A DNA stretch of 64,000 nucleotides from Myxococcales bacterium (GTDB lineage: Bacteria; Myxococcota_A; Polyangia; Nannocystales; Nannocystaceae). The first letter of the stretch is position 1; each line of letters starts with the position of its first letter. The DNA lies in the NCBI GenBank assembly GCA_020633295.1, contig JACKDW010000001.1:1213828-1277827 (forward strand), read 5' to 3'. The notes below the pieces were generated by a model that saw nothing but the letters and a program-made list of their open reading frames with translations, searched no databases and was not told the origin of the DNA. This document shows positions 3,801 through 42,668 of the stretch, one piece after another. The translations under genes and the position numbers were made by a program.

Positions 3801-5101
3801 CGCGCGTGCGCGCCCTCCTCACCCGCGCCGATGAGCTGCTCGTCGCGGCCGGCGCGTCGGCGGCCGTGGCCGCGTCGCCCTCCGACGCTTCCTCCCACGC
3901 TTCCTCCCACGCTTCCTCCCACGCTTCCTCCGACTCGTCGCTCCGACCTCGAGCTCCGACGCGCACGACGACCTCCCTGTCGTCGACGGACGACGAGGCC
4001 GTCGGCGCGTCGGCGGCGACGCGCGAGGTGACCGCCGCGCGCCTGCGGCTGCGGACGATCGAGACGCTTACGCACGCGCTGCAGGGTGATCTCGACGCGG
4101 CGATCGTGGGCTGCGAGGCGTGCGAGTCGGCGCTGCTCGAGTCGTGCCCCGACGACGCGTGGGGGCTGACCGAGCTGCGCCGCGCGCGGCTCGACTGCCT
4201 GCGCCGCGCCGGGCTGTTCACCGAGCTGCGAGCGCAGCGCGACCGCGTCGCCGCGCTCGCGCAGGCGGTCGAGAGCCGCGAGCTCAAGGCCATGAGCCGG
4301 CTCGCGGATGTCTGGCTCGCGCTCGCGGGCGCGGCCGCCGACGAGGCCGCGCGCTGGCTCGACGAGGCGCGCGCGCACTGGACGATCCGCAGCCCGAGCG
4401 TGCCGCTGGCGGAGGTGCTGATCGCCGAGGTCCACGTCGCGCTCGCGCGCCGCGACGTCGACGCGGCCGCGCGCGCGCTCGCCGACGCCTGGTCGCAGCT
4501 CTCCGGCAGCACGCTGTGGCGCGTGCAGCAGCTCCGCGTCGACGCGCTGTTCGCCCGCGCGCTCTGCAGCGTCACCCGCCACGTGAGTGACATGACCTCT
4601 CAGTCACGTCGCGCGGCCGAGCGCGACCTCGCGGCGCTCGCCCAGGAGGACTACCCCGGCGCGGCCGGCCTCGCCGCGCTGCCCTCCGCCTCGCTGCTGG
4701 TCGCGACGGGCGCGCGCGAGCGGGCGGCGGCGGAGCTCGCCGCGGCGATCACCACGCTCGACAACGCGGGCCTGCGCCTGCACGCGCGCGCGTCGCCCAC
4801 GCGCGCGCGCGCGCGTGCTCGCGAGCGGCGAGCGCGACTGCGTCGTCGGCGTGCGCTCGCTCGGCGTGCGCGCCCCGGTCGAGCTCTCGGAGCGGCTCGT
4901 GCCGCTGTCGCGCGCGCTCGCGGGCTGAACCACGTCACGACGCGCGCGGCTCATCGACGTCGGCGTCGGCGGCGGCGGGCTCCGAGCGCACCGACCGACG
5001 CGCACCGATCGACGCGTCCCCGAGCCCCGACGCGCGTCGCCATCTCGCCTCGCGGTCATCAACCCGATTCACGCGCGAGCGCACGCCGGCGCTGGACGTG
5101 A
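857..5101 (+). CDS. Serine/threonine protein kinase fused to a P-loop NTPase (AAA/STAND-like) and a long helical/TPR-like regulatory region
   Basis: GTG 857, with an alternative ATG at 959. Kinase motifs LGSGAMGMVYEA (Gly loop), AIKVL (Lys), HRDIKPSNALV (catalytic loop), DFG, and GTPAFMSPEQ (activation segment). Walker A at SRAGLGKTTLLRRF. The last ~60 codons in this frame are Arg-rich junk. The plausible C-terminus continues in the +1 frame to TGA 4926-4928 after a (GC)n tract at 4801-4815 (see findings). Confidence 0.85.
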   Translation: MRDSRYPHTVRDPLSGDAPAPPELDLEADRLRALMRASVFKQKHQPVTIGRFEIVRLLGSGAMGMVYEAVDPRDDETVAIKVLRSQNPRALALFKKEFRALSRLSHPNLVTLYELGRAGQRYFFSMELVRGIPLQRYLWGLELPDTSDLAAQTPEASQSLTALSISPVTDFARLRDVFGQLCAGVSALHQAGKLHRDIKPSNALVTGSGRVVLMDFGFVSEQGQGALESTHGNMVVGTPAFMSPEQARAAPPSPTSDWYSVGAALYMVLTGQPPFFGLNLADMMQAKQTRLPIAPRLLVNGIPEDIAALCVGLLAPDPKNRPDERAVFRVFSKDGERAPGMSLRARARDAAAAMPLVGGGGVDLRAGLVGRDAELAALREAYARVEGTSGQVQPTAVFVTSRAGLGKTTLLRRFTSELRDAGEAVVLKTRCYERDTMQLKALDGLVDALARHLKQLPEPELRALLSADVNALVAQFPALLQVRALAGREPAALDRRELQPRALAALREILQRLGERAPLVVWVDDLQWGDVDSVALLVELLDPRERATPRVLLLASYRSEDAARSPALEPLQRLAEDPARAAHVTRLELTPLDEDACMAIAERLLAVRAPDAADDTAQAIAREAQGSPLFVHELVRFVEREVAVAQADGRRPHVSLEALLHVRVAQLPRRMRRLLALVAVAGRPIELSLALAAAEIREDARAVVRRLDNENLVIARERDGVTILDTQERVRAAAVAQLDGVTLRAHHERLAEIYAAADAPDHVILAEHLRAAGQLTQARAHIIAAARQAAAAGDHDQAAEHYHFAIELSADDPDETERLRLQLADVLARCGRWTLAADTYVDLSRGQPGADPRLYARAAALMLAQGITNIGRVMLITGMREANLRPPGAARVVRWLRRGSAKLRGYEFEARLPSTLAPEAAARVDVLEAGAVGLAPTDLDAAEDLQARHLRSALDLGDPRRVARALALEALTEARRGVDGRARVRALLTRADELLVAAGASAAVAASPSDASSHASSHASSHASSDSSLRPRAPTRTTTSLSSTDDEAVGASAATREVTAARLRLRTIETLTHALQGDLDAAIVGCEACESALLESCPDDAWGLTELRRARLDCLRRAGLFTELRAQRDRVAALAQAVESRELKAMSRLADVWLALAGAAADEAARWLDEARAHWTIRSPSVPLAEVLIAEVHVALARRDVDAAARALADAWSQLSGSTLWRVQQLRVDALFARALCSVTRHVSDMTSQSRRAAERDLAALAQEDYPGAAGLAALPSASLLVATGARERAAAELAAAITTLDNAGLRLHARASPTRARARARERRARLRRRRALARRARPGRALGAARAAVARARGLNHVTTRAAHRRRRRRRRAPSAPTDAHRSTRPRAPTRVAISPRGHQPDSRASARRRWT
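3887..3934 (+). repeat. 12-bp tandem repeat (gcttcctcccac) x4, last copy imperfect, encoding (SHAS)n inside the kinase gene
   Basis: Direct reading of 3887-3934. The translation shows SHASSHASSHASS. Confidence 0.8.
4801..4815. repeat. (GC)7-8 dinucleotide tract at the point where the kinase reading frame appears to shift
   Basis: gcgcgcgcgcgcgcg read directly. Frame 2 upstream is protein-like and frame 0 downstream is protein-like (VLASGERDCVVGVRSLGVRAPVELSERLVPLSRALAG, then stop). Confidence 0.7.
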
Positions 5102-5410
5102 CGCTCGCGCGCGACGATCGCGAGCACCTCGCGCTCGCGGCGTTCGGGACCGACGACCCCTGTTCGCCGCTGCGCTGGCGGGGGCCACTCGCCGACGCGC
5201 GCCGGGTCGCGAGCGCGGCCATTTCGAGATGTTCCATAGGTCAGCTCCACACGCGCGCCCACACGATCGCCGCGCTCAGGGCGACCGCCCGCGCCAGGGC
5301 CCGCGCCGCCGATCGGGTCAGAACCGCCGTCACGCCCGGCAGCGCGCCGTTCACGCGAACGCCGCGGGAGGCCCGTGACGCGCTGCGCTATCCGGGGTAG
5401 CCTTCGCGCG

Positions 5411-6064
5411 ATGGAGGACGATTTTGCTCTTCTCGACAAGTGGCGCGCGGGCGACCTCGACGCGGGGAGCGACCTGTTTGATCGCCACTTCGAGAGCATT
5501 CACCGGTTCCTGCGCAACAAGGTCGGGGACGACACTGACGAGGTGATGCAGCGCACCCTGCTCGCCTGCGTCGAGAGCCGCGACCGGTTCCGCGGCGCCT
5601 CCAGCTTTCGCACCTTCCTGTTCGGCGTCGCGCGCCTCGAGCTGCTCTCGCACTACCGCCGCAAGCGCAAGCTCGACGCCCACGTCGGCTTCGAATCGCG
5701 CTCCTTCTACGACCTCGACCCGTCCCCCAGCACCATCGTCGCCCGCCACATGGAGCAGCGGCTGCTGCTCGAGGCGCTGCGCAGGCTCCCCGTCGACCTC
5801 CAGATCGCGCTCGAGCTGCACTACTGGGAGGCGATGTCCGCGACCGAGATCGCGACCGTGCTCGAGATCCCCGCCGGCACCGTCAAGAGCCGCCTGCGCC
5901 GCGCCAAGGAGCTGCTGCGCGAGACCATGAGCCACCTCGCGCTCAACAAGGATCAGCTCGAGAGCACCATGGGCGACCTCGGCGGCTGGGCCAAGTCGCT
6001 CGGCGAGGCGCTGCGCGAGGGCGCCGCGTCCCCGCGTCGAGGCGGGCGCAAGCCGAAGCGCTGA
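5411..6064 (+). CDS. ECF-type RNA polymerase sigma factor (sigma-70 regions 2 and 4)
   Basis: ATG 5411 (MEDDFALLDKW...). Region 2-like FRGASSFRTFLFGVARLELLSHYRRKRK and region 4.2-like helix-turn-helix MSATEIATVLEIPAGTVKSRLRRAKELL. An alternative GTG start at 5375 is possible. Confidence 0.8.
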   Translation: MEDDFALLDKWRAGDLDAGSDLFDRHFESIHRFLRNKVGDDTDEVMQRTLLACVESRDRFRGASSFRTFLFGVARLELLSHYRRKRKLDAHVGFESRSFYDLDPSPSTIVARHMEQRLLLEALRRLPVDLQIALELHYWEAMSATEIATVLEIPAGTVKSRLRRAKELLRETMSHLALNKDQLESTMGDLGGWAKSLGEALREGAASPRRGGRKPKR

Positions 6065-6085
6065 TCGACCACCGGAGAGCCGACG

Positions 6086-6472
6086 ATGACGCGCAGGGAG
6101 CTGATCAAGGCCGTGCAGGACTCCGTCCGCGAGGCGCTGCCCGAGCTGACGCAGCACGACATCGCCACGGTCGTCGACGCCGCCTTCGAGCAGATCGCGA
6201 CCGCCATGCGCGATGACGGCCGCTACGCGCACCCCGGCTTCGGCACCTTCTCGGTTCGCCGCCTCGCGCCGCGGCCTGGCTTCAACCCGCGCACCGGCGA
6301 GCGAATCCAGGTGCGCGCCTCGACCTCCGTGCGCTTCTCCGCCTCGCGCTCGCTCGTGGAGCGCCTCGGCGTCGCGCGTGCGCCCAGCGACCACGCGGAC
6401 GCGCGCGACCTCGAGAGCGACCTCGAGAGCGACCTCGAGAGCGACCTCGAGAGCGACCTCGAGAGCGACTAG
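6086..6472 (+). CDS. HU/IHF-family nucleoid DNA-binding protein with an acidic C-terminal (DLES)5 repeat tail
   Basis: ATG 6086 preceded by GGAGAG, Shine-Dalgarno (SD)-like ribosome-binding sequence, 6 nt upstream. HU-fold motifs ELIKAV, GFGTFSVRRLAPRPGFNPRTGERIQVRASTSVRFSAS. Confidence 0.85.
   Translation: MTRRELIKAVQDSVREALPELTQHDIATVVDAAFEQIATAMRDDGRYAHPGFGTFSVRRLAPRPGFNPRTGERIQVRASTSVRFSASRSLVERLGVARAPSDHADARDLESDLESDLESDLESDLESD
6407..6466 (+). repeat. Perfect 12-bp tandem repeat (gacctcgagagc) x5 encoding DLES x5 at the C-terminus of the HU-like protein
   Basis: Direct reading of 6407-6466. Confidence 0.9.
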
Positions 6473-6602
6473 CCCGAGGCCTACACCCCCTGCCCGCAGC
6501 GGGGCGCCGAAGCTCAGGACGCGCGCGCGCTCGCGCGTGGTTCTACGATCGCCCGACCCGACCGCGTCCGCGCGCGCGCGACGTCACGCGCGCCTGCCCA
6601 AT

Positions 6603-6631
6603 TGAGCACACAAGCAGACGCTGATACCATC
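6603..6631 (+). promoter_or_regulatory. Candidate sigma-70-like promoter (TTGAGC, 17-bp spacer, TACCAT) upstream of repeat-element copy 1 and sthA
   Basis: Hexamers at 6603-6608 and 6626-6631 with a 17-nt spacer, in the 515-bp HU-sthA intergenic region. Pattern match only. Confidence 0.25.
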
Positions 6632-6662
6632 GCCGCGTCCGATGCAGGAGGTGCGCCGGTCC

Positions 6663-6890
6663 AGGTCTAGCTCGGTGCCCTGCACCAGGGCGGCGTTGCG
6701 CCGCCCGGGCGTACCTCTCCGCATTCATCACAAGGAAGGCTATTCCAGAATGTCGCTGTCCCGAGAAGAGCCCGTAGACGGCGACGGGCTGGAACAACCT
6801 CGCCACTCGAAGTTCCGTACGCCGTCTACGGGCTCTTCTCGGGGCGAATTCAGTGAGCCTTCCATGTCCCAGGTCATGTCGTAGACGACC
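6663..6890 (+). repeat. Copy 1 of a conserved non-coding element with a long hairpin. Core 6726-6875; the variable stem arms 6761-6781 and 6822-6842 form a 21-bp perfect helix. Candidate structured RNA or a MITE (miniature inverted-repeat transposable element).
   Basis: About 150 nt near-identical to 9663-9812 apart from the central stem (for example catcacaaggaaggctattccagaatgtcgctgtcc ... ggcgacgggctggaacaacNtcgccactcgaagttccgtacgccgt ... ggcgaattcagtgagccttccatgtcccaggtc). The stem is entirely different in the two copies yet perfectly complementary within each. Weaker similarity extends about 60 nt upstream. Confidence 0.75.
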
Positions 6891-6986
6891 GCGCGCCTCC
6901 GGCATCGGACACCTCTTCACAACCAGCCACGGACCCCACCCAGGCGAGCCCCGACCTCGTCCGTCGTCGCCAGCAGGAGACACGCA

Positions 6987-8393
<1,407 letters not shown>

Positions 8394-8622
8394 GACCGCT
8401 GCGGTGACGCCGAGCGCCGCGCGCGAGCGTGGCAGCGCGCGCGCGAGTCCGCACGACGCCGCGCGCGAGCAGCCGCCGCGCGCGACCACGTCCGCACACG
8501 CCGCGCGCCGCAGCGCGCCCGACAGCGCGCGCCTGGCCCGAAGATATTGTCGCGCGCGTCGCCGGCACGCGCCGAAATCACGGCCAGGACGAGTTCCGGA
8601 ACTGTTATGCTGCGTTGAGCCC

Positions 8623-9381
8623 ATGTCCGAGTTCCAACTCGCCACGCGCACCTCGATCACCGCGTACTATTCGCGGAGTCAGCTGTTGATCATCGCCGAG
8701 GGCAAGCTGCCGACGCCGGATTGGGAGATCGACATCAGCCAGGATCACAACCAGGCGGCGGTCCCGACGTTTCGACTCTCACGTCGCCCGCGGCCGACCG
8801 ACACCGGCGACGAGGAGACCCCGTTTCGCTACGGCGAGATCTTCACGATCGGCCGCCCGCCCGATCACATCATCGTCCGCCACGTCGACGGCGACGACCG
8901 CGTCCCGGTCGAGTTCACCAACCAGGAGCTCGTCGACATCGTGCTCAGCCTCAGCCTCGAGGACAGCCAGAGCGACGTCCTCGAGATCCCGATGCTCGAC
9001 GACATGGGCGACGAGCCGTCCTCCTCGGTCTACGACTCCGGCCTCCACCGCGTCGAGGTCAACGCGTCCTCCCTGGGCGGCGGCGGAGACGTCATGGTCG
9101 GCCAGGCCATCCCGGCGATGGGCGGGATCAACCTCGACCCGAGCCAGAGCGGCTCGGGCATGCTCAACGACCTCAGCGTCCGCTACCGCGAGTCGGTCGG
9201 CTACTCGAACAAGCTCTCCTTCGACGAGGCCTTCGCCGACGCGCTCAAGAAGCTCCCCCCGCCCGCGATGAAGTTCCCCGACATGATGGAGACCGTCGAG
9301 GTCGTGCACATCGGCGGGACCTTCGGCGGGATCGCGGGCTTCCACCGCCTCGAGGTCCGCATCCGCGCGTACCCCGACTGA
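8623..9381 (+). CDS. Hypothetical acidic cytoplasmic protein (no recognisable domain)
   Basis: ATG 8623 ([11 protein letters not shown]...). Protein-like composition with slightly lower-GC codon choice than the neighbours (tat, agt, ttg, ttt). No signal peptide. Confidence 0.55.
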
Positions 9382-9597
9382 GCGCGCGACGAGATCTCGC
9401 GCCGCCTCCAGCGCGAGCGGTCGGGCCCGCGACCCGACAAAACATGACTCATAAACCAGGTTTCCGCGCGCGCGCGCCGGGAGAAACTCACCCGCGCGCG
9501 CCGGGAGGCGCGGGAAGCTGCGGGAAGCTGTTGATCCGCGCGCCGGAGGCGTGCTATCCGATCAGCACGCGGACGAACTGCTCACCCGACCAGGAGG

Positions 9598-9825
9598 TAG
9601 GTCTAGCCTGATGCCCTGCATCAAGATCGGCGCTGCGCCGATCCGGCATCTTCCATCGCACACATCACAAGGAAGGCTATTCCAGAATGTCGCTGTCCCT
9701 CATATATGCCTCGTACGGCGACGGGCTGGAACAACGTCGCCACTCGAAGTTCCGTACGCCGTACGAGGCATATATGAGGGGCGAATTCAGTGAGCCTTCC
9801 ATGTCCCAGGTCTTGAAGTAGACAT
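9598..9825 (+). repeat. Copy 2 of the hairpin element. Core 9663-9812; stem arms 9697-9718 and 9759-9780 form a 22-bp perfect helix with a different sequence from copy 1.
   Basis: Direct comparison with 6663-6890. Same orientation. Loop and flanks identical except one c/g difference in the loop. Confidence 0.75.
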
Positions 9826-9855
9826 CTTGGTAGTTGAGCTTTTCCGACGCCGCTT

Positions 9856-9910
9856 GCGGCCAGCGAGCCTTTCCCACCCCCTTGGGGCTTCGCTGGCCGC
9901 ACTTTTTTAA
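9856..9910 (+). terminator. Candidate intrinsic terminator immediately downstream of element copy 2
   Basis: gcggccagcgagcc (9856-9869) pairs with ggcttcgctggccgc (9886-9900) with one bulge and a 16-nt loop, followed by cacttttttaa (T-run 9903-9908). Confidence 0.45.
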
Positions 9911-10129
9911 GCGGCTCAAGCTCTTCCCACGTCCGCCCAGTCCGGCCCCCGGTGGCCCTGGCAACGCCGCGCTCGTAGGCCTCAGCCGCGACCTCGGAGT
10001 GCCCGAGGCGAACGGCGGCGTACAGCGCCGCGTCGAGATCCTGCATCGCGCCGGCGCCGTCGCTCGCCTTCATGCGCGCGCTCCCGCGGCGCAGCGTGCT
10101 CGGCCGACGGTAAGGAACCCGAACCCGAG

Positions 10130-10897
10130 CTAGCCGGTGGAGCCCGTGTCCGTGTCGCCGCCGGTCGTCCCGCCGCCGTCCGGCACCCCGGAGCAGTCGG
10201 TCGGGAAGTCCGTGATCGGCACCGGCAGATCGCCGGGCGCCGAGCTGGCGACGCGGATCGCCGAGAAGGTCGAGCCCTCGAGGCTCGCCATCAGCGGCTC
10301 GATGACGTTACCCTCGATGATCCCGCACACGAAGTCCGCGCTCTGGATCGAGCCGACGTAGCGCAGCTCCGTGACGATGTCGCTGCCCGTGATCGGGTTG
10401 GCAGCGCCCGTGACCATGAAGGTCTGATACACGCCGTCGCCCGCCGGGAACGCGTAGCGCCCGTCCTCGTCGACGACGATGTCGGGGATCACGATCGAGT
10501 CGCCGACCGGCGTGCGCGGCGTGTCGATGCTCTGCGGCTCGAGGGCGAGCGGCTGCAGCGTCAGCGTCAGGCGCCCGCCCAGGCCCTCCGGCGTGAACTC
10601 CTGCGTCGCCAGGAACTGCAGCGGGTGCGTCGGGTCGATCACCGAGGCGACGACCATCAGGAACTCGCCCGAGATGTCCTCGAGCTGCCCGCCGAGGTCC
10701 TCCTTCGGGAGCGGGAGGTCCCGCAGCTCCCGGGTGTCGTCGAGGAAGCCGTCGAGCTTGCCCTGCGGATCCGGGCAGCCCGTGGCGGTGAGCGACGCCA
10801 GCGTGAGCGCGCCCGCCAAGCCGAGACGCGCGCGCGTCCCCGCGCGCCCCTGCTGCCTCTGTCCACGCGTCCGCTCTGGCCAAACTTCCTGTTGCAT
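10130..10897 (-). CDS. Lipoprotein, hypothetical
   Basis: ATG (complement) at 10895-10897. Signal peptide with lipobox ...LTLASLTATGC. The C-terminus is Gly/Thr/Asp-rich. The longer track ORF to 11134 is an Arg-rich upstream extension and was rejected. Confidence 0.65.
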   Translation of the reverse strand: MQQEVWPERTRGQRQQGRAGTRARLGLAGALTLASLTATGCPDPQGKLDGFLDDTRELRDLPLPKEDLGGQLEDISGEFLMVVASVIDPTHPLQFLATQEFTPEGLGGRLTLTLQPLALEPQSIDTPRTPVGDSIVIPDIVVDEDGRYAFPAGDGVYQTFMVTGAANPITGSDIVTELRYVGSIQSADFVCGIIEGNVIEPLMASLEGSTFSAIRVASSAPGDLPVPITDFPTDCSGVPDGGGTTGGDTDTGSTG

Positions 10898-11225
10898 GCG
10901 CTCTGGATCCCGCTCGACGACAGGGCCCCGATCGAACTCAGGAGTCCCTTGGGCATGGTCGCACAGTTCCGGGCGCGCGCGCGAGTTCCTTTTTCCCGCG
11001 CGACCGCTCCCGCCTTCCCGCGCGACCGCTCCCGCGCTGCGGCGAGCGGGCCGGGAGAATCGTTGCGTAGCCAACCACCTCCGCGGACCCGCGACGGCGC
11101 GGCGGCTTTCGTGCCCCGACGCCGCGACTTTCATAGTAGAGTCGCCCCAGGGTCGAGAAGCGGGTCCACGCCCTGGCTGCTCGACGCGCGGCCGTCCGCG
11201 GCCGACTCATGGACGAGGAGACCCG

Positions 11226-12755: not shown

Positions 12756-12774
12756 CCGGCCCGCGCGCGCGGCT

Positions 12775-12803
12775 CGCGGGCGCGACGTCCGGCCGCGCCC
12801 GCG
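12775..12803 (+). terminator. Candidate hairpin terminator after the FadL-family gene
   Basis: 10-bp GC stem 12775-12784 / 12794-12803 with a 9-nt loop, followed by ttgactcctgtctttgtgg (only moderately T-rich). Confidence 0.3.
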
Positions 12804-12890
12804 TTGACTCCTGTCTTTGTGGCCATCAGCGGGTGACGCGGCCGCGGGCCTCGGATATAACGCCTGCGGCCCACCGCCAGAGCGCTCGTC

Positions 12891-14174: not shown

Positions 14175-14190
14175 CGACGCCGGCGCCGGC

Positions 14191-14889: not shown

Positions 14890-14893
14890 GCTG

Positions 14894-16255: not shown

Positions 16256-16460
16256 GGGAGCGGACCATACCGCCGAGTCGCCGCTCGCGCTTCTGGACAG
16301 TTCTCACGCGCCACGGCGGAAAACGCGCGGCCGCAGCGCGACTTGACCGAACAACGCTCGCGGGCCATTCTCCGCGCCCTACCGGCCCCTCGGTACCGCT
16401 TGTTGGATCGCCCCTGCGCGCGAGCGAGCGAGCGTCTGGACACACAGGAGAACGACACGC

Positions 16461-16598
16461 ATGGGACACCTCGATAATCGCCGCACGCCGAAGATGCGCC
16501 AGCGCAAGCGCCAAGCCAAGCTCAAGGCCCGACTCAAGCGCCGCGCCGAGGAGAAGCGCCAGACGCGAGCCGGCGCCCCCCCCCCCAAGAAGAAGTGA
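16461..16598 (+). CDS. Small, highly basic 45-aa protein (unannotated in the ORF track) containing an 11-C homopolymer
   Basis: ATG 16461 with CAGGAG, SD-like ribosome-binding sequence, 10 nt upstream. Translation MGHLDNRRTPKMRQRKRQAKLKARLKRRAEEKRQTRAGAPPPKKK. GC3-rich codon usage consistent with the host. Ends at TGA 16596-16598. Confidence 0.35.
   Translation: MGHLDNRRTPKMRQRKRQAKLKARLKRRAEEKRQTRAGAPPPKKK
16576..16586. repeat. Poly-C homopolymer (11 nt) inside the small basic ORF (encodes PPP)
   Basis: Direct reading of 16576-16586. Confidence 0.9.
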
Positions 16599-17774: not shown

Positions 17775-17860
17775 CGATCGGCGCGCGTCGATCTTCGCTC
17801 GCTTCGCAATCATCGCGTTCCTCCGTCGATCGTCGCGGCGGTCGATCGTCTTCGTGGGAG

Positions 17861-18030
17861 ATCGAGCCTCCAGTCGCTCGTCGTGACGGATCGAGCCTCC
17901 GCGTCGCTCGTCGTGACGGTCGATCGCGGGAGCGAGTGATCGAAGCACGAGCGAGCCTCCGCGTCGCTCGTCGTGACGGTCGATCGCGGGAGCGAGTGAT
18001 CGAAGCGCGAGCGAGCCAGCCTCCGTCGAG
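17861..18030. repeat. About 60-bp tandem direct repeat, two full copies (17893-17952, 17953-18012) plus partial diverged copies, in the ddl-trpS intergenic region
   Basis: gagcctccgcgtcgctcgtcgtgacggtcgatcgcgggagcgagtgatcgaagcRcgagc repeated with a single a/g difference. Not CRISPR-like, as there are no spacers. Confidence 0.85.
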
Positions 18031-18252
18031 CACCACGAGCGGAGCGTGGCGAGAGAGAGGGGGCGGGGTCGGAAGAGGACTTAAGACCATGTGAGCGGCC
18101 CCCGGAGGGGGTCGTTCACGTGCGTCCCGCATGGAGCGCCCCCGCCCCCTCGCTCCAAGAGCCACGCGTGTCGCAAAACCGGCGCTCGCAATCCGAACCC
18201 GAGAATCCGAAGGGGGTCGATCACCAGGGATGTCCATGGCATCGTCGCGCCC

Positions 18253-29518: not shown

Positions 29519-30775
29519 GTGTTCTCTCGTCGGACGTCGTGGGACTCGACCCCCGGCGCGCTCGCGCAGGCGATCGCGCGCGCGCGCGCGGACGACACGG
29601 GCGCGCCGCTGCTGGACCTCACCTGCTCGAACCCGACCGCGGTCGGCCTCCACCCCGATCCGAACGAGATCCGCGCGGCGCTCGACCGCGCCTACGACCC
29701 CCGCTACACGCCGGACCCGCTCGGCAGCCTGCGCGCGCGCGAGGCCGTGCTCGACTACTACCGGCGCCGGCACGCGCTCACGCCTGACCTGACGCCCGCG
29801 CGCGTCTGCCTGTGCGCCGGCACGAGCGAGGCCTACGCCAACCTCCTGGCCGTCCTGTGTGACCCCGGGGACGTCGTGCTCGTGCCGCGCCCGGGCTACC
29901 CGCTGCTCGCGTACCTCGCCGATCTCCAGGGCGTCACGCTCGCCCCCTACGCGATCGAGCTCGAGCACGGCGCCTGGCGACTCGACCTCGAAAGCGTCCG
30001 CGAGCAGCTCGCGCGCCCGCGCGAGCGCGCCCGCGTCCGCGCCGTCATCGTCGTCGCGCCCAACAACCCGACCGGCAACTACGTCGACGACCTCGAGCTC
30101 GCCGCGCTCGAGCGACTGTGCCACGAGCGCGAGCTGGCGCTGATCATCGACGAGGTGTTCCACGACTACCCGCTCGACCCCATCGCCGCGCGTCGCGGCT
30201 GCGCGCTCGCGGGCGCGCGCCGCTGCCTGTGCTTCACGCTCTCCGGGCTCTCCAAGGTCGCCGCGCTGCCCCAGCTCAAGCTGTCCTGGCTCGTCGCCCA
30301 CGGCCCGCCCGAGCTGGCGACGGCGGCCATGGGCCGCCTCGAGCTGATCGCCGACAGCTTCTTGAGCGTCGCGAGCCCGGTCCAGCGCGCGCTGCCGGAG
30401 CTGCTGGAGCGCGCTCCCGCGACGCAGGCCCGCGTGCTCGCGCGCACGCGAGACAACCACGCGCACCTGCGCACGTGCTGTCGCCTGGCCGAGAGCGCCG
30501 TGACGCCGCTCGCGGTCGAGGGCGGCTGGACCGCGCTCGTCCGCCTGCCGGCGATCGGGGGGCTCGACGACGCGGGCTGGGTGCTCGATCTGCTGGAGCA
30601 CGCCCGCGTCCTCACGCAGCCCGGGTATCTCTACGATCTCGACGATGGCGGCGGCGCGCGCCCCATGCTCGCGCTCTCGCTGCTGAGTGAACCCAGGCAA
30701 TTCCGCGACGGCCTCACGCGCCTGCTCGCGCGCGTCGCCGCACGCGTCGCCGCAGTGGTAGCCTCGGGCCCATGA
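29519..30775 (+). CDS. Pyridoxal-phosphate-dependent aminotransferase (class I/II fold)
   Basis: GTG 29519. VIVVAPNNPTGNYV and the PLP-lysine region FTLSGLSKVAALPQLKLSW. Confidence 0.8.
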   Translation: MFSRRTSWDSTPGALAQAIARARADDTGAPLLDLTCSNPTAVGLHPDPNEIRAALDRAYDPRYTPDPLGSLRAREAVLDYYRRRHALTPDLTPARVCLCAGTSEAYANLLAVLCDPGDVVLVPRPGYPLLAYLADLQGVTLAPYAIELEHGAWRLDLESVREQLARPRERARVRAVIVVAPNNPTGNYVDDLELAALERLCHERELALIIDEVFHDYPLDPIAARRGCALAGARRCLCFTLSGLSKVAALPQLKLSWLVAHGPPELATAAMGRLELIADSFLSVASPVQRALPELLERAPATQARVLARTRDNHAHLRTCCRLAESAVTPLAVEGGWTALVRLPAIGGLDDAGWVLDLLEHARVLTQPGYLYDLDDGGGARPMLALSLLSEPRQFRDGLTRLLARVAARVAAVVASGP

Positions 30776-31440: not shown

Positions 31441-31687
31441 TATGGGGCATCAGCGTCGCCCGCGCGGCTCGCCGGCCCGCGCTGGCGCGTCGTCGCTTCG
31501 GCATCGTCGAGCCGCGCGCGTTGACAATTTGTCACGCGCGCGGGCACGGACGCGCCAGCCTGCGGCGGAGATCATGCGCTACGCCGGTTTCGCCTTTGAG
31601 TTTGTACGCGCCCCTTGTGGCACCCTGGTTGCATTGGGCATAAACCGTACAGACCGGCGCGTGCCTGCGCGCGTGGGATCGAGCAGC

Positions 31688-34848: not shown

Positions 34849-34875
34849 TCGCGCGCCCCGGAGGCGGGGCGCGGG

Positions 34876-35562: not shown

Positions 35563-35868
35563 GGAGATCACGCGGCGCTCGGCCGCCGCGAGGAACACTG
35601 TCAGCGACGGAGACGACAGCGCCGTCACGGTTTGAAGACATCGCGGAGACGTCGACTCGCGCGACGTCTCTGACTTGTCTCAAAAGACAGCTCGTGTTTG
35701 CGCCCGCGCGCTGTATCACGCGCGCGCGGTTGAAGTCGCGATCCCCGGCGCCGCTCGGGCACTCGCGCGCGCCTCGTGGAGCGGTCGCGACAACCACGCG
35801 AGACGTCGGCGTCGCCCGAGAACGCGCCGCGCCGCGTGCTAGGCTGTTCGCTTACCGTGGGTGACGGG

Positions 35869-37590
35869 ATGCACATGCGCCCCCTCCAATCCGGGAGGCG
35901 GGCGGCGGTCGAGCATGTTCAAGAGCTCGTCGATCCGCGCGTCGAGCCCCACGACGCCAACCAGCTCGAGCTCAAGCTCGGCTACGTCATCAAGCCCGGC
36001 GAGCGCCGCCAGCGCTACCTCATCGAGACCTACATGTTCATCCCCAAGACGCTGGGGATCGATCGACACAGCTACAACGCGAGCCGCTTCTACGCCGACA
36101 CCGCCGCGTTCCTGCGCCTGCGCACGCCCCACGTCTCGCTCGAGGCGCTGGCGACCGTCGGCAGGGCCAACGCGTGGTTCGAACAGCTGCACTCCGGGCT
36201 CGACGCGCGCGCGCGCATGCGTGAGCGCGACATCAGGCGACTCGCGCGGCGCGTGAAGATCCTCGGCTGCGTGTACCGCTCGGCGCTCCGCGACGACGCG
36301 CGCTCGCTCCGGCAGCAGCTCACGAGCGCGCCGGCGCCCGATCCCCTCGCCGAGGGCCGCATGCAGGAGACGACCGCGCGGCGGATCCGTCGCTTCGTCC
36401 GCAACATCGAGCGCGCGCTCCGGCGCCTGCGCGCCGTCGACGGGCGCTGCCTCGCGCGCGGCGACGGCGACCTGCTCTGCGACTCGTGGCGCGCGGTCGA
36501 CGAGTACAGCGCGCTGATCGCCGAGGACGTGTGCAAGGACGTCATCGTCGCGCTCGACGATCGGGCGTCGCGCTCGCCCGTCGTCCACCCCGACCTCCTC
36601 GACGCGCGCGCGCGGCTCGTGCGGGCCGCCGTCGACGCCCACCAGTATCGCCGCAGCCGCGGCTACCGCAGCCAGCTCATCGCCGGCGAGAGCAACGAGG
36701 AGCTGCCCCACTGGCGGCGGACGATCAAGCGCATCGTGTTCAGCGCGCTGTACCTCGACGTGCGCCACGAGGAGGTCGGGCGGCTCGCGTATGACCTCGT
36801 GGGCGCGGTCGCGGCGATGATCGCGATGGCGTTCGCCGTCACCGTCAGCCTGCTCGCGCAGCTCGAGCTCGACATCTTCAGCGGCGCCTTCGTCGCGATC
36901 ATGATCGTCTCCTACATGATCAAGGATCGGCTCAAGGACTGGGGCAAGCGCTACGGCGGCCGGCACCTCGGGCGGCTGCTCCCGGACACGCTCGTGCGCG
37001 TGCACGACAACGAGGGCGACCGCGCGCTCGGGCAGTGCCGCGAGTCCTTCTACATGCTGCAGGTCGACGAGGTCGACGACGAGATCAGGCGCTCACGGCA
37101 GTCGCGTCGCGCGAGCTCGATCGAGCGGCTCGGCAAGCCCGAGGTCGTCATCCGCTACTCCAAGGACGTGACGCTCCACTCGCAGCCGCTGCGCGACGAG
37201 CTCGCCGGCCTCGAGGGGCTGCACGACATCATCCGCTTCAACCTCGGGCACCTGCGCGACCGCATGGACGCGCCGCGCGAGGACCACCCGCTCATCGACC
37301 CGAACACGGGGGAGATCCAGATCATCCCCTGCGCGCGCGTCTATCACATCAACATCATCCTGCGCATGACCGTCGGGCGGGGCAAGCACGCGCGCAGCCG
37401 GGTCGAGCGCGTGCGCGTCGTCATGGACCAGCGCGGGATCAAGCGCGTCGAGTTCCTCGACCGCCACGGCAAGCAGCTGGTCTGCAACCACGAGGGCGGC
37501 GCGCCGTTCCAGGACATTACGAACCTCTCGCTCCCCGCGATCCCGCGCGCGCAGCTCGAGGACTCCGGCGCGGCCTCGGCGGCGCGCTGA
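35869..37590 (+). CDS. Hypothetical protein with two central transmembrane helices
   Basis: ATG 35869 (MHMRP...). Hydrophobic segments VGAVAAMIAMAFAVTVSLLAQL and FSGAFVAIMIVSYMI. No recognisable catalytic motif. Immediately upstream of the ACAD/ACP/PKS operon. Confidence 0.55.
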   Translation: MHMRPLQSGRRAAVEHVQELVDPRVEPHDANQLELKLGYVIKPGERRQRYLIETYMFIPKTLGIDRHSYNASRFYADTAAFLRLRTPHVSLEALATVGRANAWFEQLHSGLDARARMRERDIRRLARRVKILGCVYRSALRDDARSLRQQLTSAPAPDPLAEGRMQETTARRIRRFVRNIERALRRLRAVDGRCLARGDGDLLCDSWRAVDEYSALIAEDVCKDVIVALDDRASRSPVVHPDLLDARARLVRAAVDAHQYRRSRGYRSQLIAGESNEELPHWRRTIKRIVFSALYLDVRHEEVGRLAYDLVGAVAAMIAMAFAVTVSLLAQLELDIFSGAFVAIMIVSYMIKDRLKDWGKRYGGRHLGRLLPDTLVRVHDNEGDRALGQCRESFYMLQVDEVDDEIRRSRQSRRASSIERLGKPEVVIRYSKDVTLHSQPLRDELAGLEGLHDIIRFNLGHLRDRMDAPREDHPLIDPNTGEIQIIPCARVYHINIILRMTVGRGKHARSRVERVRVVMDQRGIKRVEFLDRHGKQLVCNHEGGAPFQDITNLSLPAIPRAQLEDSGAASAAR

Positions 37591-37774
37591 GCGAGCGCGG
37601 CGCTGGGCGCCGCGCCTTCGAGACATGTCCTTATGCGCAGAATCGCGGCGCGCGGCGCATGATCGACCCGTGCAGAAATTCTCCGCCCGCCGCAATTGAT
37701 CCCGGGGACGCGGAAACTGATCGAGTGAACGCGCCCTCGCCCACGCGGCGTGACGCGGCGCGACGAGGCGGATC

Positions 37775-38914
37775 ATGGACTTCAGCTGGACAGACGAGCA
37801 ATCGACGCTCCACGAGCAGGCGCTCGAGTTCGCGCGCGCCCGGCTGCGCGGGCGCGACGACGACGACGACCGCAGCTTCGCGCGCGCGACCTGGCGCGCC
37901 CTCGGCGACTTCGGGGCGCTCGGCGCCTGCCTGCCCCGCGCCCACGGCGGGCTCGGGCTCGACGCGCTGACCACCGCGCGCGTCGTCGAGGGGCTCGGTC
38001 ACGGCGCGCGCGAGCTCGGCCTCGTGTTCTCGGCCTGCGCCCACCTGCTCGCCTGCGCCGTCCCCGTCGCCGAGCACGGGAGCGCCCAGCTGCAGCGCGA
38101 GGTGCTGCCCGCGCTCGCCTCGGGCGAGCAGATCGGCGCCAACGCGATCACCGAGGCCGGCGCCGGCTCTGACGTGTTCTCGCTGCGGACCACGGCCCGC
38201 CGCGACGGCGACGACTACGTGCTCGACGGCGCGAAGAGCTACGTCACCAACGGCCCCGTCGCCGATCAGCTCCTCGTCTACGCCTCCACCAACCCCGCGC
38301 ACGGCTACCTGGGCATCAGCGCGTTCCTCGTCGACGCGCGCCAGGCCGGCGTCACGCGCGGCGAGCCGTTCCACAAGACCGGCCTCGGGAGCTCGCCGAT
38401 CTGCCCTGTGTACCTCCGAGACGTGCGCGTGCCCGGCTACCGCCGGCTCGGCGCCGAGGGCGGCGGCGCGGCGATCTTCCAGCGCTCGATGGCGTGGGAG
38501 CGCGCCTGCCTGTTCGCGGCCTTCGTCGGCGCGATGGCGCGTGACCTCGAGCTCTGCCTCGAGCACGCGCGCGGCCGCCAGCAGTTCCGCAAGCCGATCG
38601 GGCGCCACCAAGCGGTCGCGCACCGCCTCGCGGACATGAAGCTCCGCCTCGAGGGCGCGCGCCTGCTGCTGTACCGCGCGTGCTGGCGGCTCGACCGCGG
38701 CGAGCTCGCGGCGCTCGACATCAGCCTCGCCAAGCTCGCGGTCAGCGAGGCCGCGGTCCAGAGCGGGCTCGACGTCATCCGCCTCCACGGCGGCCTCGGC
38801 TACATGTCCGAGACCGGCCTCGACAACGGCCTGCGCGACGCGCTCGGCAGCCTGATCTTCTCGGGGACCTCCGAGATCCAGCGCGACCTGATCGCGCGCG
38901 GCCTCGGGCTCTAG
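37775..38914 (+). CDS. Acyl-CoA dehydrogenase family protein
   Basis: ATG 37775. ACAD N-terminal region FSWTDEQSTLHEQALEFAR, middle-domain ANAITEAGAGSDVFSLRTTARRDGDDYVLDGAKSYVTNGP, and C-terminal helical domain with QQFRKPIGRHQAVAHRLADM. Confidence 0.9.
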   Translation: MDFSWTDEQSTLHEQALEFARARLRGRDDDDDRSFARATWRALGDFGALGACLPRAHGGLGLDALTTARVVEGLGHGARELGLVFSACAHLLACAVPVAEHGSAQLQREVLPALASGEQIGANAITEAGAGSDVFSLRTTARRDGDDYVLDGAKSYVTNGPVADQLLVYASTNPAHGYLGISAFLVDARQAGVTRGEPFHKTGLGSSPICPVYLRDVRVPGYRRLGAEGGGAAIFQRSMAWERACLFAAFVGAMARDLELCLEHARGRQQFRKPIGRHQAVAHRLADMKLRLEGARLLLYRACWRLDRGELAALDISLAKLAVSEAAVQSGLDVIRLHGGLGYMSETGLDNGLRDALGSLIFSGTSEIQRDLIARGLGL

Positions 38915-38975
38915 CGCCCGCCCGACGCGCGACCCGACGCGCGCCCCCGATCGGCGCGCCGCGAGCTCCCGCGGC

Positions 38976-39000
38976 GCGCCGCGCCGCGCCGCGCCGCGCC
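38976..39000. repeat. (GCGCC)5 pentanucleotide simple-sequence repeat in the ACAD-ACP intergenic region
   Basis: Direct reading of 38976-39000. Confidence 0.85.
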
Positions 39001-39090
39001 GCCGACGGCGCGACGCGACGCGCCACGAATTTTCGTCACCGATCCGCCGCCGGATCGAACACGCACCCCTGACACACCGCTGAGTTCACG

Positions 39091-39399
39091 ATGCAAACCA
39101 TCAACCACACCCCCGCCCTCTCGTCCACGACCGCCGACCGCTTCCTCGAGCCGCTCTCGCGCTTCATCATCCGCGAGTTCCTCCACGGCGACGCGAGCCT
39201 CACGCCCGAGACCCCGCTGCTCGAGTGGGGCGTGATCGACTCGATGACCATCATCGACGTCATCGTGTTCATCTCGGAGCAGCTCGGCGTGCGCGTGCCC
39301 GACGAGGAGATCCGCCCCGACAACTTCGCCACGCTGCGCGCGCTGAGCCGCATGCTCGCCGCGCTCGACGACGCCGCGCGCGTCCGGGGGGCGGCGTGA
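39091..39399 (+). CDS. Acyl carrier protein (discrete)
   Basis: ATG 39091. Phosphopantetheine-attachment motif LEWGVIDSMTIIDVIVFISEQLGV (DS-M/L core). 102 aa. Confidence 0.8.
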   Translation: MQTINHTPALSSTTADRFLEPLSRFIIREFLHGDASLTPETPLLEWGVIDSMTIIDVIVFISEQLGVRVPDEEIRPDNFATLRALSRMLAALDDAARVRGAA

Positions 39400-40472
39400 G
39401 CCGCGTCCACCTCTCGAGCCTCGTGACCGTCGCGGGCGCCCACACGGTGCCGCAGGCGGCGCTCGGCGAGTCCATGCGCCACCAGCTCGCGCGCCTCCCC
39501 GAGGCCGCGGGCGTGGCCCAGATGATCACCTTCGTCTACGCCCGCTCGGACATCCGCGCGCGTCACCTCGAGCTCGCGCCCGACGAGCTCGAGCGGCGCG
39601 ACGACTGGTACGCGCTCACCAACGAGGCGACCTTCCGCCTCGCCTGCCGGGCGCTCGACGCGGTGCTCGCGGCCGGCGAGCGCGCCGAGACGCTCGACGG
39701 CCTCGTCGTCGTCAGCTCCAGCTACGCCGGCTTCCCCGCGCTGAGCCGGCGCCTGCAGGACCGCTACCGGCTCCCGACCGCCGCGCGCTGCCTCGACCTC
39801 ACCGGCCTCGGCTGCGGCGGCTCGACCCAGGGGCTGGAGCTCGCCGACAGCCTCGTGTCCCGTGGGACATGTAAAAAAGTCGCGCTGATCTGCGTCGACG
39901 TCATGGGCACCTTCGGCGCCGCGCGTCGGCACCTGCGCGCGCCGACGATGTCGCAGCTCGTCGCCCACTGCCTCGCGTCGGACGGCGCCGCGGCGCTCGT
40001 CGTCGAGCGCGAGCCCTCGCCGCGCTGCGTCCTCAGCTACGCGCGCGCGCGCCTGCGCACGCGCCTGTGGCCCGGGACGCTCGCGCTCAACGACCTCACC
40101 GCGGACGCCGACAACCAGCCGCTCATCGCGGTCGGCAAGGACATCCGCGCGCGCCTGCTGCCCGAGGTCGCGCCGCTGCTCGAGCAGCTCGAGCCCGGCC
40201 TGCTCGCGATGCACCCCGGCGGCAAGGCGCTCATGCAGCTGCTGCGCGCGCGCTGCCCCGACCACGCCGACGCGGCCGAGCTCGCCATGGCGACGCTGCG
40301 CGAGCACGGCAACCTCGGCGCCCCCTCGGCGCTGTGGGTCCTGCGGCGCGCGCTGAGCTCCGAGCTCGCGGGCGCGCTCGATCGCGGCGGTCGCTGCCAC
40401 CTGTTCGCGCTCGCGCCCGGCATCGTCACGACCCTGTTGACCCTGGAGGGAGCGCGCAGCCATGCCGCGTGA
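39396..40472 (+). CDS. Type III polyketide synthase (chalcone/stilbene synthase family)
   Basis: GTG 39396 overlapping the ACP stop (GTGA). Active-site Cys context LDLTGLGCGGSTQGLELADSL, His region LAMHPGGKALMQ, and Asn region GNLGAPSALWVL (corresponding to GNMSSA). Confidence 0.8.
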   Translation: MSRVHLSSLVTVAGAHTVPQAALGESMRHQLARLPEAAGVAQMITFVYARSDIRARHLELAPDELERRDDWYALTNEATFRLACRALDAVLAAGERAETLDGLVVVSSSYAGFPALSRRLQDRYRLPTAARCLDLTGLGCGGSTQGLELADSLVSRGTCKKVALICVDVMGTFGAARRHLRAPTMSQLVAHCLASDGAAALVVEREPSPRCVLSYARARLRTRLWPGTLALNDLTADADNQPLIAVGKDIRARLLPEVAPLLEQLEPGLLAMHPGGKALMQLLRARCPDHADAAELAMATLREHGNLGAPSALWVLRRALSSELAGALDRGGRCHLFALAPGIVTTLLTLEGARSHAA

Positions 40473-42668
40473 TCACCACGTCGTCCCCGTCCCCGCCCCC
40501 GCCCCCGCCCCCATCCCCGAGCTCGACGCGCGGGTCCAGGCCGCGCGCGCGGCCCAGCGAGCCTGGGCGCGCGCCGGCGTCGCGCGCCGGCTCGAGGTCC
40601 TGCAGGCCGCCGGCCGCCGCCTCGCGCGGCGCGGCGCGGCGCGCTCGACGAGGCGCTCGCCGCCGACGGCCTCTCGCGCAAGCTCGCCGGCCCCTACGGC
40701 GACTGGGTGTGCGCGCAGGCGGAGCCCGCCCGGCTCGCGCGCTACGCCGCCCAGCTCGTGCGCGAAGAGCCAGGTCCCCGCGGGCCCGAGCTGCTCGTGC
40801 GCCGCCCCGACGGGCTCGTGCTGCTCGTGCCGCCCGGCAACTCGCCGACCATCAACGCCTCGTGCCTGTTCTCGATCCTGCTGCCCGGCAACGCGGTGAT
40901 CGCCCGGGCGCCCGCCCGCGACCGCGGCGTGCGGCTGCTCGTCGAGGACGTGCTCGGCGGCGCCCTGGAGGAGGCCGGGATGGACCGCGCGCTCGCGCAG
41001 GTCCTGACGATCGGCACGCGCCCCTTCCTCGACGCGCTGCTCGGGCGCCCCGAGCCGCGCACGCTCGTGTTCTTCGGCAACACCCGCGTCGGCGAGGCGG
41101 TCGCCGAGCGCTGCCGCGCCGCCGGCAAGAAGGTGGTGCTCGAGCTCGAGGGCAGCGACCACATGATGATCTGGCGCGACGCGCCGCTCGAGCGCGTCGT
41201 CGACAGCGCGCTGCGGGCCTTCGACTTCTCGACCCAGCCCTGCGCCGTGCCCAAGCACCTGCTCGTCCACGGCGCGCGCTTCGACGAGCTCGTCGCGGCG
41301 CTCGAGCGCCGGCTCCCCGAGGTCTCCGTCACGATCGCGCGCGACCCCGAGCGCGGCGTGCTCGCGCCCGTCGCCCGCCGCGAGGACTACTTCGCGTGCC
41401 TCGACGAGGTCGCGCCCGTCGCCGAGCTGCGCGGCGGCGGCCCGATCGACGCCGACGGAGAGCCTGACCCTGAGGGCATCTTCATCGCGCCGACGCTCGC
41501 GCTGCTCGACGCGCAGACCGTGCTCACGCGCCCGCTCCGGCTGTTCGAGGACGAGATCAGCTTCCCGCTGCTCCCGATCGTCCGCTGCGACGGCGCGCGC
41601 GACGAGGACGCGCTCGCGGCCATGCTGAAGATCGTCGGCGGCAGCCCCTTCGGCCTGCGCGCGTCGCTCTGGAGCGAAGACGCGGAGGTCATCGAGCGCT
41701 GCGTCGAGGAGCTCGCGGAGGTCGGGCTGCTCGTCGTCAACGGCGATCACTGCGAGGTGCCCGGCTACGCCTCGCCGTGGGGCGGCCCCGGACGCAGCGG
41801 CGGCCCCGGGGGCGAGAGTCACCTGTTCTGGGAGAAGACCAGCCGCCTGCAGGCGATCACGCTCGACCCCGCGTCGCGTCGCGCCGCGCTCGCGGCCCTC
41901 GGCGTACCAGACCCATCAGACATGTCCCGATCGCCCGCGACGCCCGCGCCGGACGCCGGCGAGCCGCTCACGCTCACGCTGGAGGACGGCGTCGCCACGC
42001 TCACGCTGCGTCGCCCCGCGCGTCACAACGCGGTCAACCCGGCCATGCAGCGCGCGCTGCTCGCGGCCGCGCGCGAGCTGCAGCGACGTCAGCACGAGCT
42101 GCGCTGCGTCGTCATCCGCGGCGCCGGTCGCTCGTTCTGCAGCGGCGCCGATCTGCACGCGCTGCGCGAGCTGGACCCGGACGCCGCGCGCCGCTTCATG
42201 CTCGACGCGACCTGGGCGTTCCGAGCGCTCGAGCGCCTGCCCGCGCCCGTGATCGCGGCGGTCCACGGCTACTGCCTCGGCGGCGGCTTCGAGCTGCTGC
42301 TGCACTGCGACGAGGTCATCGCGGCCGAGAGCGCGCGCCTCGGGCTGCCCGAGGCCAACCTCGGGCTCGTGCCGACCACCGGCGCGATCGCGCGGCTCAT
42401 CGCCAGCGTCGGAGAGCTGCGCGCGCGCGAGCTCGTGATGTCCGCCCGCGCGCTGACGGCCGCCGAGGCCCAGCAGTTCGGGCTCCTCACCCTCGTGGTC
42501 CCGGACGCGGCGCTCGACGACGCCGTGGCCGAGCGCGTGCGCGCGCGCCTCGCCCAGCCCCGCGAGGGGCTCGCCGCGGTCAAGCGCCTGTTCGCCAGCG
42601 GCCGCCGCCACGCGGGCGCGTGGATCCACGAGCTCGAGACCTTTGATGCCCTCACCCGCGGATCGTGA
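40462..42668 (+). CDS. Aldehyde dehydrogenase-like domain fused to an enoyl-CoA hydratase/isomerase (crotonase) domain, interrupted by an apparent frameshift at 40625-40644
   Basis: ATG 40462, with GGAGGGA 9 nt upstream. The ALDH-like N-terminus (ELDARVQAARAAQRAWARAGVARRLEVLQAAGRRLARRG) is in frame 1. The remainder, from about 40640, is in frame 0: ALDEALAADG..., PPGNSPTINASC, catalytic Cys FDFSTQPCAVPKHLLV, then crotonase VVIRGAGRSFCSGADL...AAVHGYCLGGGFELLLHCD. Deleting one CGCGG unit joins the two frames cleanly. Confidence 0.6.
40625..40639. repeat. (CGCGG)3 pentanucleotide tract at the ALDH-ECH frameshift site
   Basis: Direct reading: cgcgg cgcgg cgcgg cgcgc. Confidence 0.8.

Follow-up and report, generated by a model that had tools for sequence, protein, structure and literature searches.

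Two frame breaks on GC-rich repeats in a 64-kb stretch of a Myxococcales metagenome-assembled genome

Frame breaks and their described counterparts

Residual insertions and deletions (indels) in long-read assemblies reportedly create artificial frameshifts (Watson and Warr, 2019). In Escherichia coli, slipped-strand frameshifts have -2 hot spots of the NarI type (GGCGCC) and occur in (CG)n tracts, which are prone to form Z-DNA. Residual indels have been described for hybrid as well as long-read assemblies (Wick and Holt, 2022; PMC8812927). In the simple-sequence repeat (SSR) contingency loci of Neisseria, Haemophilus and Campylobacter, a change in the length of a coding repeat shifts the reading frame (Moxon et al., 1994; PMC11868660), and the criterion for phase variation is high-frequency, reversible switching (PMC11868660). 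These are the closest described counterparts of two frame breaks in a 64,000-nt stretch of a Myxococcales bacterium (GenBank assembly GCA_020633295.1, contig JACKDW010000001.1, positions 1,213,828 to 1,277,827), referred to below as the window. One break lies in a Ser/Thr kinase gene (site 1) and the other in a gene for a fusion of an aldehyde dehydrogenase with an enoyl-CoA hydratase (ALDH-ECH; site 2). It is probable, though by no means certain, that both are local unpolished consensus errors at extreme-GC, low-complexity spots. Whichever of the leading explanations holds, the type of event is already known and ordinary.

The window resembles the indel artefacts of long-read and hybrid assemblies in its small indels, located in low-complexity sequence, which interrupt genes that are otherwise intact and conserved, and in that these indels are limited to places that short reads probably could not polish while the rest of the assembly is accurate. 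However, the textbook long-read artefact is a homopolymer error, whereas here a run of 11 C residues (C11) is correct and the lesions lie in alternating-CG runs at extreme GC, on a platform that is itself deduced. The likeness to slippage in GC runs of E. coli lies in the unit-sized (+/-2 nt) changes in (CG)n and in the run at site 1, which is self-complementary and hairpin-capable. Unlike the E. coli events, those described here are known from assembled sequence. With the contingency loci the window shares a coding repeat in which a change of length shifts the frame. Unlike those loci, the tracts are short, driven by composition and invariant in length across assemblies where this can be tested. 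The genes are also cytoplasmic housekeeping or regulatory ones, one tract lies at the far 3' end of the gene, and the repeat is not conserved in relatives.

It is clear that the frame is broken in the deposited sequence. A plot of GC content at third codon positions (GC3) and a six-frame codon-usage hidden Markov model (HMM) place same-strand frame switches at 4799/4800 and 40625/40626 only, both on the + strand, in the whole 64 kb. A first-pass annotation of the window had proposed that two frameshifts sit on GC-rich tracts, and this is borne out by the frame plot, the HMM, an orthologue, Pfam matches and 14 homologues. The chance that both break intervals would overlap one of the 25 SSRs in the window is about 2.6e-4, which argues that the process that made the indels is repeat-associated, whatever its nature. 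Both lesions would fit a change of one CG unit, -2 nt at site 1 and +2 nt at site 2.

The segments displaced by the two breaks are open frames with full codon bias (GC3 0.94-0.98). Therefore, the lesions are either very recent or not real, and old pseudogenes are excluded. The absence of decay does not separate an artefact from a recent real mutation. What if the genes are functional as written, by ribosomal frameshifting or transcriptional slippage? The full coding signal in both halves of each gene is in keeping with such programmed recoding. However, slippery heptamers and homopolymeric A/T runs are absent from both breaks, DNA folding at both breaks is no more stable than in shuffled controls, and the orthologues and homologues are single-frame, so that the frameshift is not conserved. 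Recoding is therefore extremely improbable.

Other places that might pass for broken genes were rejected. The one at 60465 is an ATGA stop/start overlap. The same-frame pairs of open reading frames (ORFs) near 6064, 26300, 50400 and 56600 are separate genes, each with its domains complete (ECF sigma, HU, GHMP kinase, DsbA-like, RNase II, PQQ propeller, HtpG, phosphofructokinase (PFK), hydrolase and binding protein). NCBI protein numbers and locus tags are continuous from a 45-aa ORF (16461..16598) to a ketosynthase (KS) gene, which means that the source annotation has no pseudogene between the two.

The kinase and ALDH-ECH genes

The gene at site 1 encodes a Ser/Thr kinase-AAA_16-TPR-like protein (Pfam Pkinase and AAA_16) on the + strand. 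From its true start, ATG 959, it is read in one frame (2 mod 3) as far as 4783 (959..4783). The frame then changes to 0 mod 3 within a break interval of 37 nt (4784..4820), located by the frame plot, the HMM and tblastn and flanked by CTCGACAACGCGGGCCTGCGCCTGCAC and GGCGAGCGCGACTGCGTCGTCGG. The displaced C-terminal tail (4821..4928) ends in a TGA at 4926-4928. Thus the break falls 37 codons before the stop and affects only the tail.

An intact 1272-aa kinase occurs in a syntenic kinase-sigma-HU-transhydrogenase block, found both in GCA_030430565.1 (L022) and in the Logan assembly of ERR3428547 (L023). In tblastn this orthologue aligns in frame 2 to 959-3841 and 4034-4783 (67-75% identity) and its tail aligns in frame 3 to 4821-4919 (73% identity). 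Within 4784-4820 the window lacks 5 nt relative to the orthologue, and the frame can be repaired by +2 or -1 nt. In DNA alignments the shortfall appears as gaps of 1 and 4 nt, which fall in the CG runs at 4783-4792 and 4800-4815. Whether this reflects one lesion or two is not separable, because the 2-nt periodicity of CG makes the alignment ambiguous; an example of a one-lesion model is the loss of one CG unit together with a codon difference. The first-pass annotation had assigned the kinase frameshift to the longer run, and the interval does contain that (CG)8 tract (4800-4815), but it also takes in a second run, (CG)5 (4783-4792), both read directly from the sequence. The two runs are predicted to pair as the arms of a DNA hairpin (-33.8 kcal/mol).

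A profile of the family C-terminus also favours a repaired frame, the score rising from 31.6 to 40-42 bits and the match reaching position 106 of 111. The profile was built from 110 homologues gathered by an exhaustive HMMER search with the kinase C-terminus, which returned only paralogue-level relatives (30-40% identity). A word-indexed search with the repaired C-terminus gave no match, an uninformative result since Ala/Arg-rich words swamp its prefilter, and tblastn with the paralogue-level relatives was discarded for its high composition noise.

Nothing in the tail looks decayed. Against the orthologue it has 18 differences in 99 nt (6/4/8 over the codon positions), amounting to 6 synonymous and 9 non-synonymous codons, and its GC3 is 0.94. 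The 250 in-frame codons upstream have a similar pattern, with 50/52/74 differences over the codon positions and 42 synonymous against 82 non-synonymous codons.

Two further aspects of the kinase deserve mention. The first is an insert at 3842-4033 of 64 low-complexity codons, where the L022 orthologue has 8 residues; it is lineage-specific and includes four copies of ASSH, encoded by an in-frame 12-nt repeat on the + strand (x4.4, 3879-3931). The codon HMM prefers another frame for 3874-3987 within this insert, but the ORF stays open, and the excursion was rejected as a double frameshift because it is the ASSH repeat insert. The second is a more distant relative, L028 (GCA_020431275.1, 1-2153), in which the kinase ends 14 residues past the LQLHA motif, without the 37-aa tail, and in which the HU-like gene is on the opposite strand. 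The absence of the tail makes L028 no help as an outgroup for site 1.

At site 2, the N-terminus of the ALDH-ECH gene (40462..40626, + strand, 1 mod 3) begins at ATG 40462 and is supported by its translation, the Pfam Aldedh match and the 14 homologues. The body (40644..42668, + strand, 0 mod 3) was deposited as the 653-aa MCB9749358.1 starting from GTG 40707, and this protein is N-terminally truncated. Between the two lies a 20-nt tract of period 5 (40624-40643), GCGCG x4, which corresponds to (CGCGG)3 plus flanking bases; the flanks of the break are GAGGTCCTGCAGGCCGCCGGCCGCCGCCT and CTCGACGAGGCGCTCGCCGCCGACGG. The upstream frame fits the homologues up to ...GRRLA (40626) and the downstream frame fits them from LDEAL (40644), which puts the break inside the tract (40627-40643), at about codon 55 of ~734. 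The displaced N-terminus is open, aligns to the homologues and has a GC3 of 0.98.

The repaired product is an Aldedh + ECH fusion, with the Pfam Aldedh match running from residue 20 across the junction. The 14 homologues (700-750 aa), from Myxococcota including Enhygromyxa and Nannocystaceae, are uninterrupted at the position of the break. How many nucleotides would have to be removed? With 2 nt (one CG) deleted, the sequence fits L001, a 63% relative, codon by codon and without a gap, whereas deletion of an entire 5-nt unit introduces a gap of one residue relative to every homologue. The same operon is present and intact in L001, which has no repeat at the homologous ALDH position. In the window the gene is embedded in this operon. 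ATG 40462 overlaps the stop (TGA 40470-40472) of the upstream KS-III-like gene, the downstream junction is a GTGA at 42665 (stop/start overlap 42665-68), and the same ATG 40462 start is called in two independent contigs, L012 and L013.

The surrounding cluster (37775-43501) comprises genes for an acyl-CoA dehydrogenase (ACAD), an acyl carrier protein (ACP), a KS-III/type-III-PKS-like protein, the ALDH-ECH fusion and a short-chain dehydrogenase (SDR), in an order that is kept in L001. It looks like a small pathway of the lipid or polyketide type. ALDH-ECH fusions of ~700-750 aa recur across Myxococcota.

Repeat lengths, contig ends and the origin of the breaks

The window has a GC content of 72% throughout and holds 25 perfect SSRs, which total 384 nt or 0.6% of its length. 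All the tracts listed in the first-pass annotation are present: besides (CG)8 and the period-5 tract these are C11 (16576-16586), (GCGCC)5 in the ACAD-ACP intergenic region (38975-39002) and longer in-frame coding repeats at 3879-3931, 6405-6469 and 51089-51200. However, the list was incomplete, since the window has 17 (CG)n tracts that are 12 nt or longer, four of which equal or exceed the one at 4800 in length. In Markov simulations (order 1-5) 3.5-10 such tracts are expected, and the longest observed (17 nt) compares with a simulated mean maximum of 14-16 nt. The excess comes from the abundance of in-frame GCG (Ala) and CGC (Arg) codons: 14 of the 17 tracts lie in-frame in intact genes, where they encode Ala-Arg strings such as ARARA. 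Among homopolymers C11 is a true outlier. C-runs of 4, 5, 6 and 7 nt number 245, 47, 7 and 1, there are none of 8-10 nt, and C11 is the sole run longer than 7 nt in the window.

The window is part of a metagenome-assembled genome (MAG), as seen from its NCBI protein entries (MCB9749328-369, labelled 'MAG: ... [Myxococcales bacterium]', locus tag prefix H6713, on a contig of 1,438,650 bp). Exact-protein look-up in Logan, ENA MEGAHIT, other assemblies and a second NCBI MAG gave 24 short-read contigs, from at least eight samples, that are 99.5-100% identical to the window. The population occurs in the runs SRR12358675/6, SRR23493594/8, SRR15882951 and SRR6747757, and in the reads underlying ERZ27309xxx and ERZ28655xxx. 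The anchors that yielded these same-population contigs were KS, the sigma factor, the electron transfer flavoprotein subunit ETF-alpha and the helicase; exact look-ups of P0001, ACAD and SDR gave no contigs.

Seven SSR tracts are crossed by independent assemblies, and none of the seven differs in length from the window. C11 is crossed by 10 contigs from at least eight samples, six with C11 and four with a synonymous C16577G that turns the run into C9. The (GCGCC)5 tract is unchanged in L013 and L014, and another 16-nt (CG)8 (29575-29590) is unchanged in L024 and L025. Lengths also match at (CG)6 (6569-6580), at (CG)6.5 (40040-40052), at a CCCCGC repeat (40491-40512) and at a second (CG)6.5 (59889-59901). 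Across at least ten assemblies no length variation was seen at out-of-frame-capable tracts crossed by contigs, the frameshift tracts themselves being uncrossed, and the ~11 kb of overlap contained no other indels in unique coding sequence. This constancy argues both against an assembly-wide quality problem and against contingency behaviour. The suggestion that slippage errors of the sequencing chemistry are systematic, and a flag for the whole assembly, is therefore plausible locally, at a few extreme-GC spots, but it does not extend to an assembly with 14 in-frame (CG)n tracts and seven of seven lengths confirmed. The sequence of the rest of the window is accurate, and the assembly is correct at every other tract that could be checked.

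The comparison with independent assemblies thus gave an answer for those seven tracts, but not for the frameshifts, as none of the 24 contigs spans either break. Gapped flank-pattern scans of JGI metagenome contigs for both breaks came back empty, and a scan of species-representative genomes found only the 63% relative. Protein searches cannot show that spanning contigs are absent, because the partial products at contig ends are not in the protein collection.

The same contigs document in-frame or intergenic polymorphisms within the population. In the HU-like gene (6086..6472) the C-terminal DLES repeat, a perfect in-frame 12-nt repeat on the + strand (x5.4, 6405-6469), is 36 nt (3 units) shorter in the MEGAHIT contig L020, while L019 agrees with the window. 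This is a genuine in-frame variable-number tandem repeat (VNTR) in the acidic tail of a nucleoid protein. A segment of ~50 nt in the kinase-ECF sigma intergenic region (5024-5072) is missing from L019 and L020, and a GAC triplet (5155-5157) from L019 and L021; these are strain-level indels in a 99.8%-identical population.

A clue to why no contig spans the breaks may lie in local composition. Only two stretches in the 64 kb reach at least 88% GC over 100 nt, one at 38892-39029, which holds (GCGCC)5, and one at 40485-40671, which holds site 2. Site 2 is in the 99th percentile of local GC and site 1 in the 94th-98th. Both of the contigs running rightward, L012 and L013, end inside the second stretch, at 40564 and 40615. 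Closest to site 1 are L019 and L020, which start at 4988. At the ACP locus six of seven contigs have their left end in or beside the first stretch: L012 and L015-L018 start at 39000-39040, at or just past the 3' end of (GCGCC)5, and L013 starts at 38969 and includes the tract. Over all contigs, the sequence just past the contig ends is modestly enriched in GC (0.743 vs 0.721, P~0.01). Illumina workflows under-cover GC-rich sequence, whereas Nanopore sequencing is without GC bias (PMC7016772), and leftover long-read indels produce frameshifts that persist where short reads cannot polish (PMC8812927). Taken together, GC coverage bias and unpolished long-read indels make a coherent mechanism for errors confined to these spots.

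How might the errors have come about? We infer from the length of the contig (1,438,650 bp in a MAG) that the assembly was made from long reads. Consensus building would then have introduced length errors of about one CG unit at two spots, so that the interval 4784-4820 would be 2 nt too short and 40627-40643 would be 2 nt too long. These would have gone uncorrected because short reads were sparse or could not be aligned there. If so, the true kinase would be intact, at ~1320 aa, and end at 4928, and the true ALDH-ECH fusion would be intact as well, with ~734 aa from ATG 40462. Raw reads would be expected to carry in-frame lengths at both sites. This explanation is favoured by the finding of only two breaks in 64 kb, both in CG repeats and in genes that are intact in relatives. 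It is also favoured by the position of ALDH-ECH in mid-operon, with stop/start overlaps on both sides and the operon conserved and intact in L001. Two frameshifted genes in ~55 are, by our estimate, above the typical rate in finished genomes and within the range of hybrid long-read MAGs.

Several observations weigh against a consensus error. C11 is the classic type of sequence at which long reads fail, and yet it is correct, as is the other 16-nt (CG)8, and there are no stray indels in the overlap. In vivo, slippage in alternating GC runs classically gives +/-2-nt changes as well. Real repeat and indel polymorphism (the HU VNTR, the 3-nt indel and the 50-nt indel) exists in the population. Finally, the kinase of L028 is naturally without the tail, and its loss may be tolerated.

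The first-pass annotation had allowed for sequencing error and contingency loci as the only two explanations, but it omitted a third that remains viable. The lesions may be real and ordinary, products of recent, non-adaptive slippage or of quasi-palindrome template switching in CG runs, or else strain variants (microdiversity) caught in the MAG consensus. We regard this as a distinct possibility, although not a probable one. The fit of both lesions to single CG units speaks for it, as do the potential hairpin arms at site 1, the genuine polymorphisms of the population (-36 nt in DLES, GAC at 5155 and the 50-nt intergenic indel), the accuracy of the assembly wherever it was checked, including C11 and the other (CG)8, and the tail missing from the L028 orthologue. 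In addition, a kinase product starting from GTG 857 or ATG 959 is not in the protein collection, a weak hint that NCBI flagged the gene as a pseudogene. However, two independent frameshifts in ~55 genes are, by our estimate, many for a free-living bacterium, and both sites fall at the very places where short reads probably give no support. Moreover, the sequence has not decayed on either side of the breaks, and ALDH-ECH lies inside a conserved, translationally coupled operon.

It is very unlikely that the repeats act as phase-variable contingency loci, reversibly switching the kinase C-terminus and ALDH-ECH as a form of bet-hedging. The coincidence of breaks and repeats is far above chance, the (CG)n tracts are 2-5 times more numerous than the Markov expectation, and ON/OFF tracts usually lie near the 5' end of a gene, as site 2 does. 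However, the seven comparable tracts are fixed in length, and the only repeat that varies is a 12-mer, which is in-frame. The tracts, all of them short, are accounted for by Ala-Arg codon usage, 14 of the 17 being harmlessly in-frame. Site 1, at 37 codons from the stop, is a poor position for a switch. The products are cytoplasmic (Pkinase + AAA_16; Aldedh + ECH_1), and are not surface, restriction-modification or host-interaction proteins. L001 has no repeat at the ALDH position, and nothing points to high-frequency reversible switching, the criterion for phase variation (PMC11868660). For these reasons the suggestion of contingency-type loci in the first-pass annotation is not supported.

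A bolder version is that alternating-CG runs, being Z-DNA- or hairpin-prone, are +/-2-nt slippage hot spots with a standing reversible frameshift polymorphism, a 'GC-rich phasome', which would toggle the C-terminal tail of a kinase and an operon-internal ALDH-ECH in a free-living, non-pathogenic lineage. This we consider highly doubtful.

Gene models and their meaning

The contigs and the repeat census also touch other genes of the window. The first-pass annotation had placed C11 in a small basic ORF, and it does lie in the very basic 45-aa ORF (MGHLDNRRTPKMRQRKRQAKLKARLKRRAEEKRQTRAGAPPPKKK; 16461..16598, + strand) between serS and ddl, encoding Pro-Pro-Pro near its C-terminus. This ORF has no Pfam family. 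Its product is identical in all 10 contigs that cross C11, in spite of single-nucleotide polymorphisms, and therefore appears to be a real small protein under purifying selection. Just past the ddl stop, 40 nt (17777-17816) are missing from the second NCBI MAG (L002), and further on there is a tandem repeat of 30/60 nt (2.1 copies, 98% identical; 17860-18017), with several short-read contigs ending at 18006-18074. Directly upstream of (GCGCC)5 is a GC hairpin with a 12-bp stem (GGCGCGCCGCGA...CGCGGCGCGCC; 38952-38981). It is the only tested region that is predicted to fold better than its shuffles (-39 kcal/mol, z = -2.8), and it may act as a terminator or in regulation.

Towards the other end of the window, a PQQ/BamB-like beta-propeller protein (50414..52237) contains an in-frame 15-nt repeat on the - strand (x7.5, VDEEE; 51089-51200). 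The longest (CG)n of the window (17 nt, 55389-55405) makes up codons 6-11 of the longest PFK ORF (TTG 55374). The Pfam PFK match begins only at residue 30 of this ORF, so the real start may be downstream, with the (CG)n tract in the leader. In the helicase gene (57592..60045), the Logan contig L027, from a 99.5%-identical strain, lacks one T at window position 59003, which is not at a repeat, and its gene call begins at the equivalent of 58944. This is either a contig error or a real frameshift in that strain.

What do the breaks mean for the gene models? The kinase is best taken as an intact gene, 959..4928, once repaired in 4784-4820, or as at most a very recent pseudogene. Likewise, ALDH-ECH is best taken as an intact gene, 40462..42668, once repaired in 40627-40643, or as at most a very recent pseudogene. 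The remaining gene models of the window are trustworthy. For high-GC MAGs from long reads the lesson is to distrust the few extreme-GC, alternating-CG stretches where short-read assemblies break, and not every repeat or homopolymer. We predict that, at the two extreme-GC CG runs, the tract lengths in read-level data will be in-frame. If the frameshifts were instead real and variable in length, phase variation would be extended to a free-living myxobacterium, although nothing here points that way.

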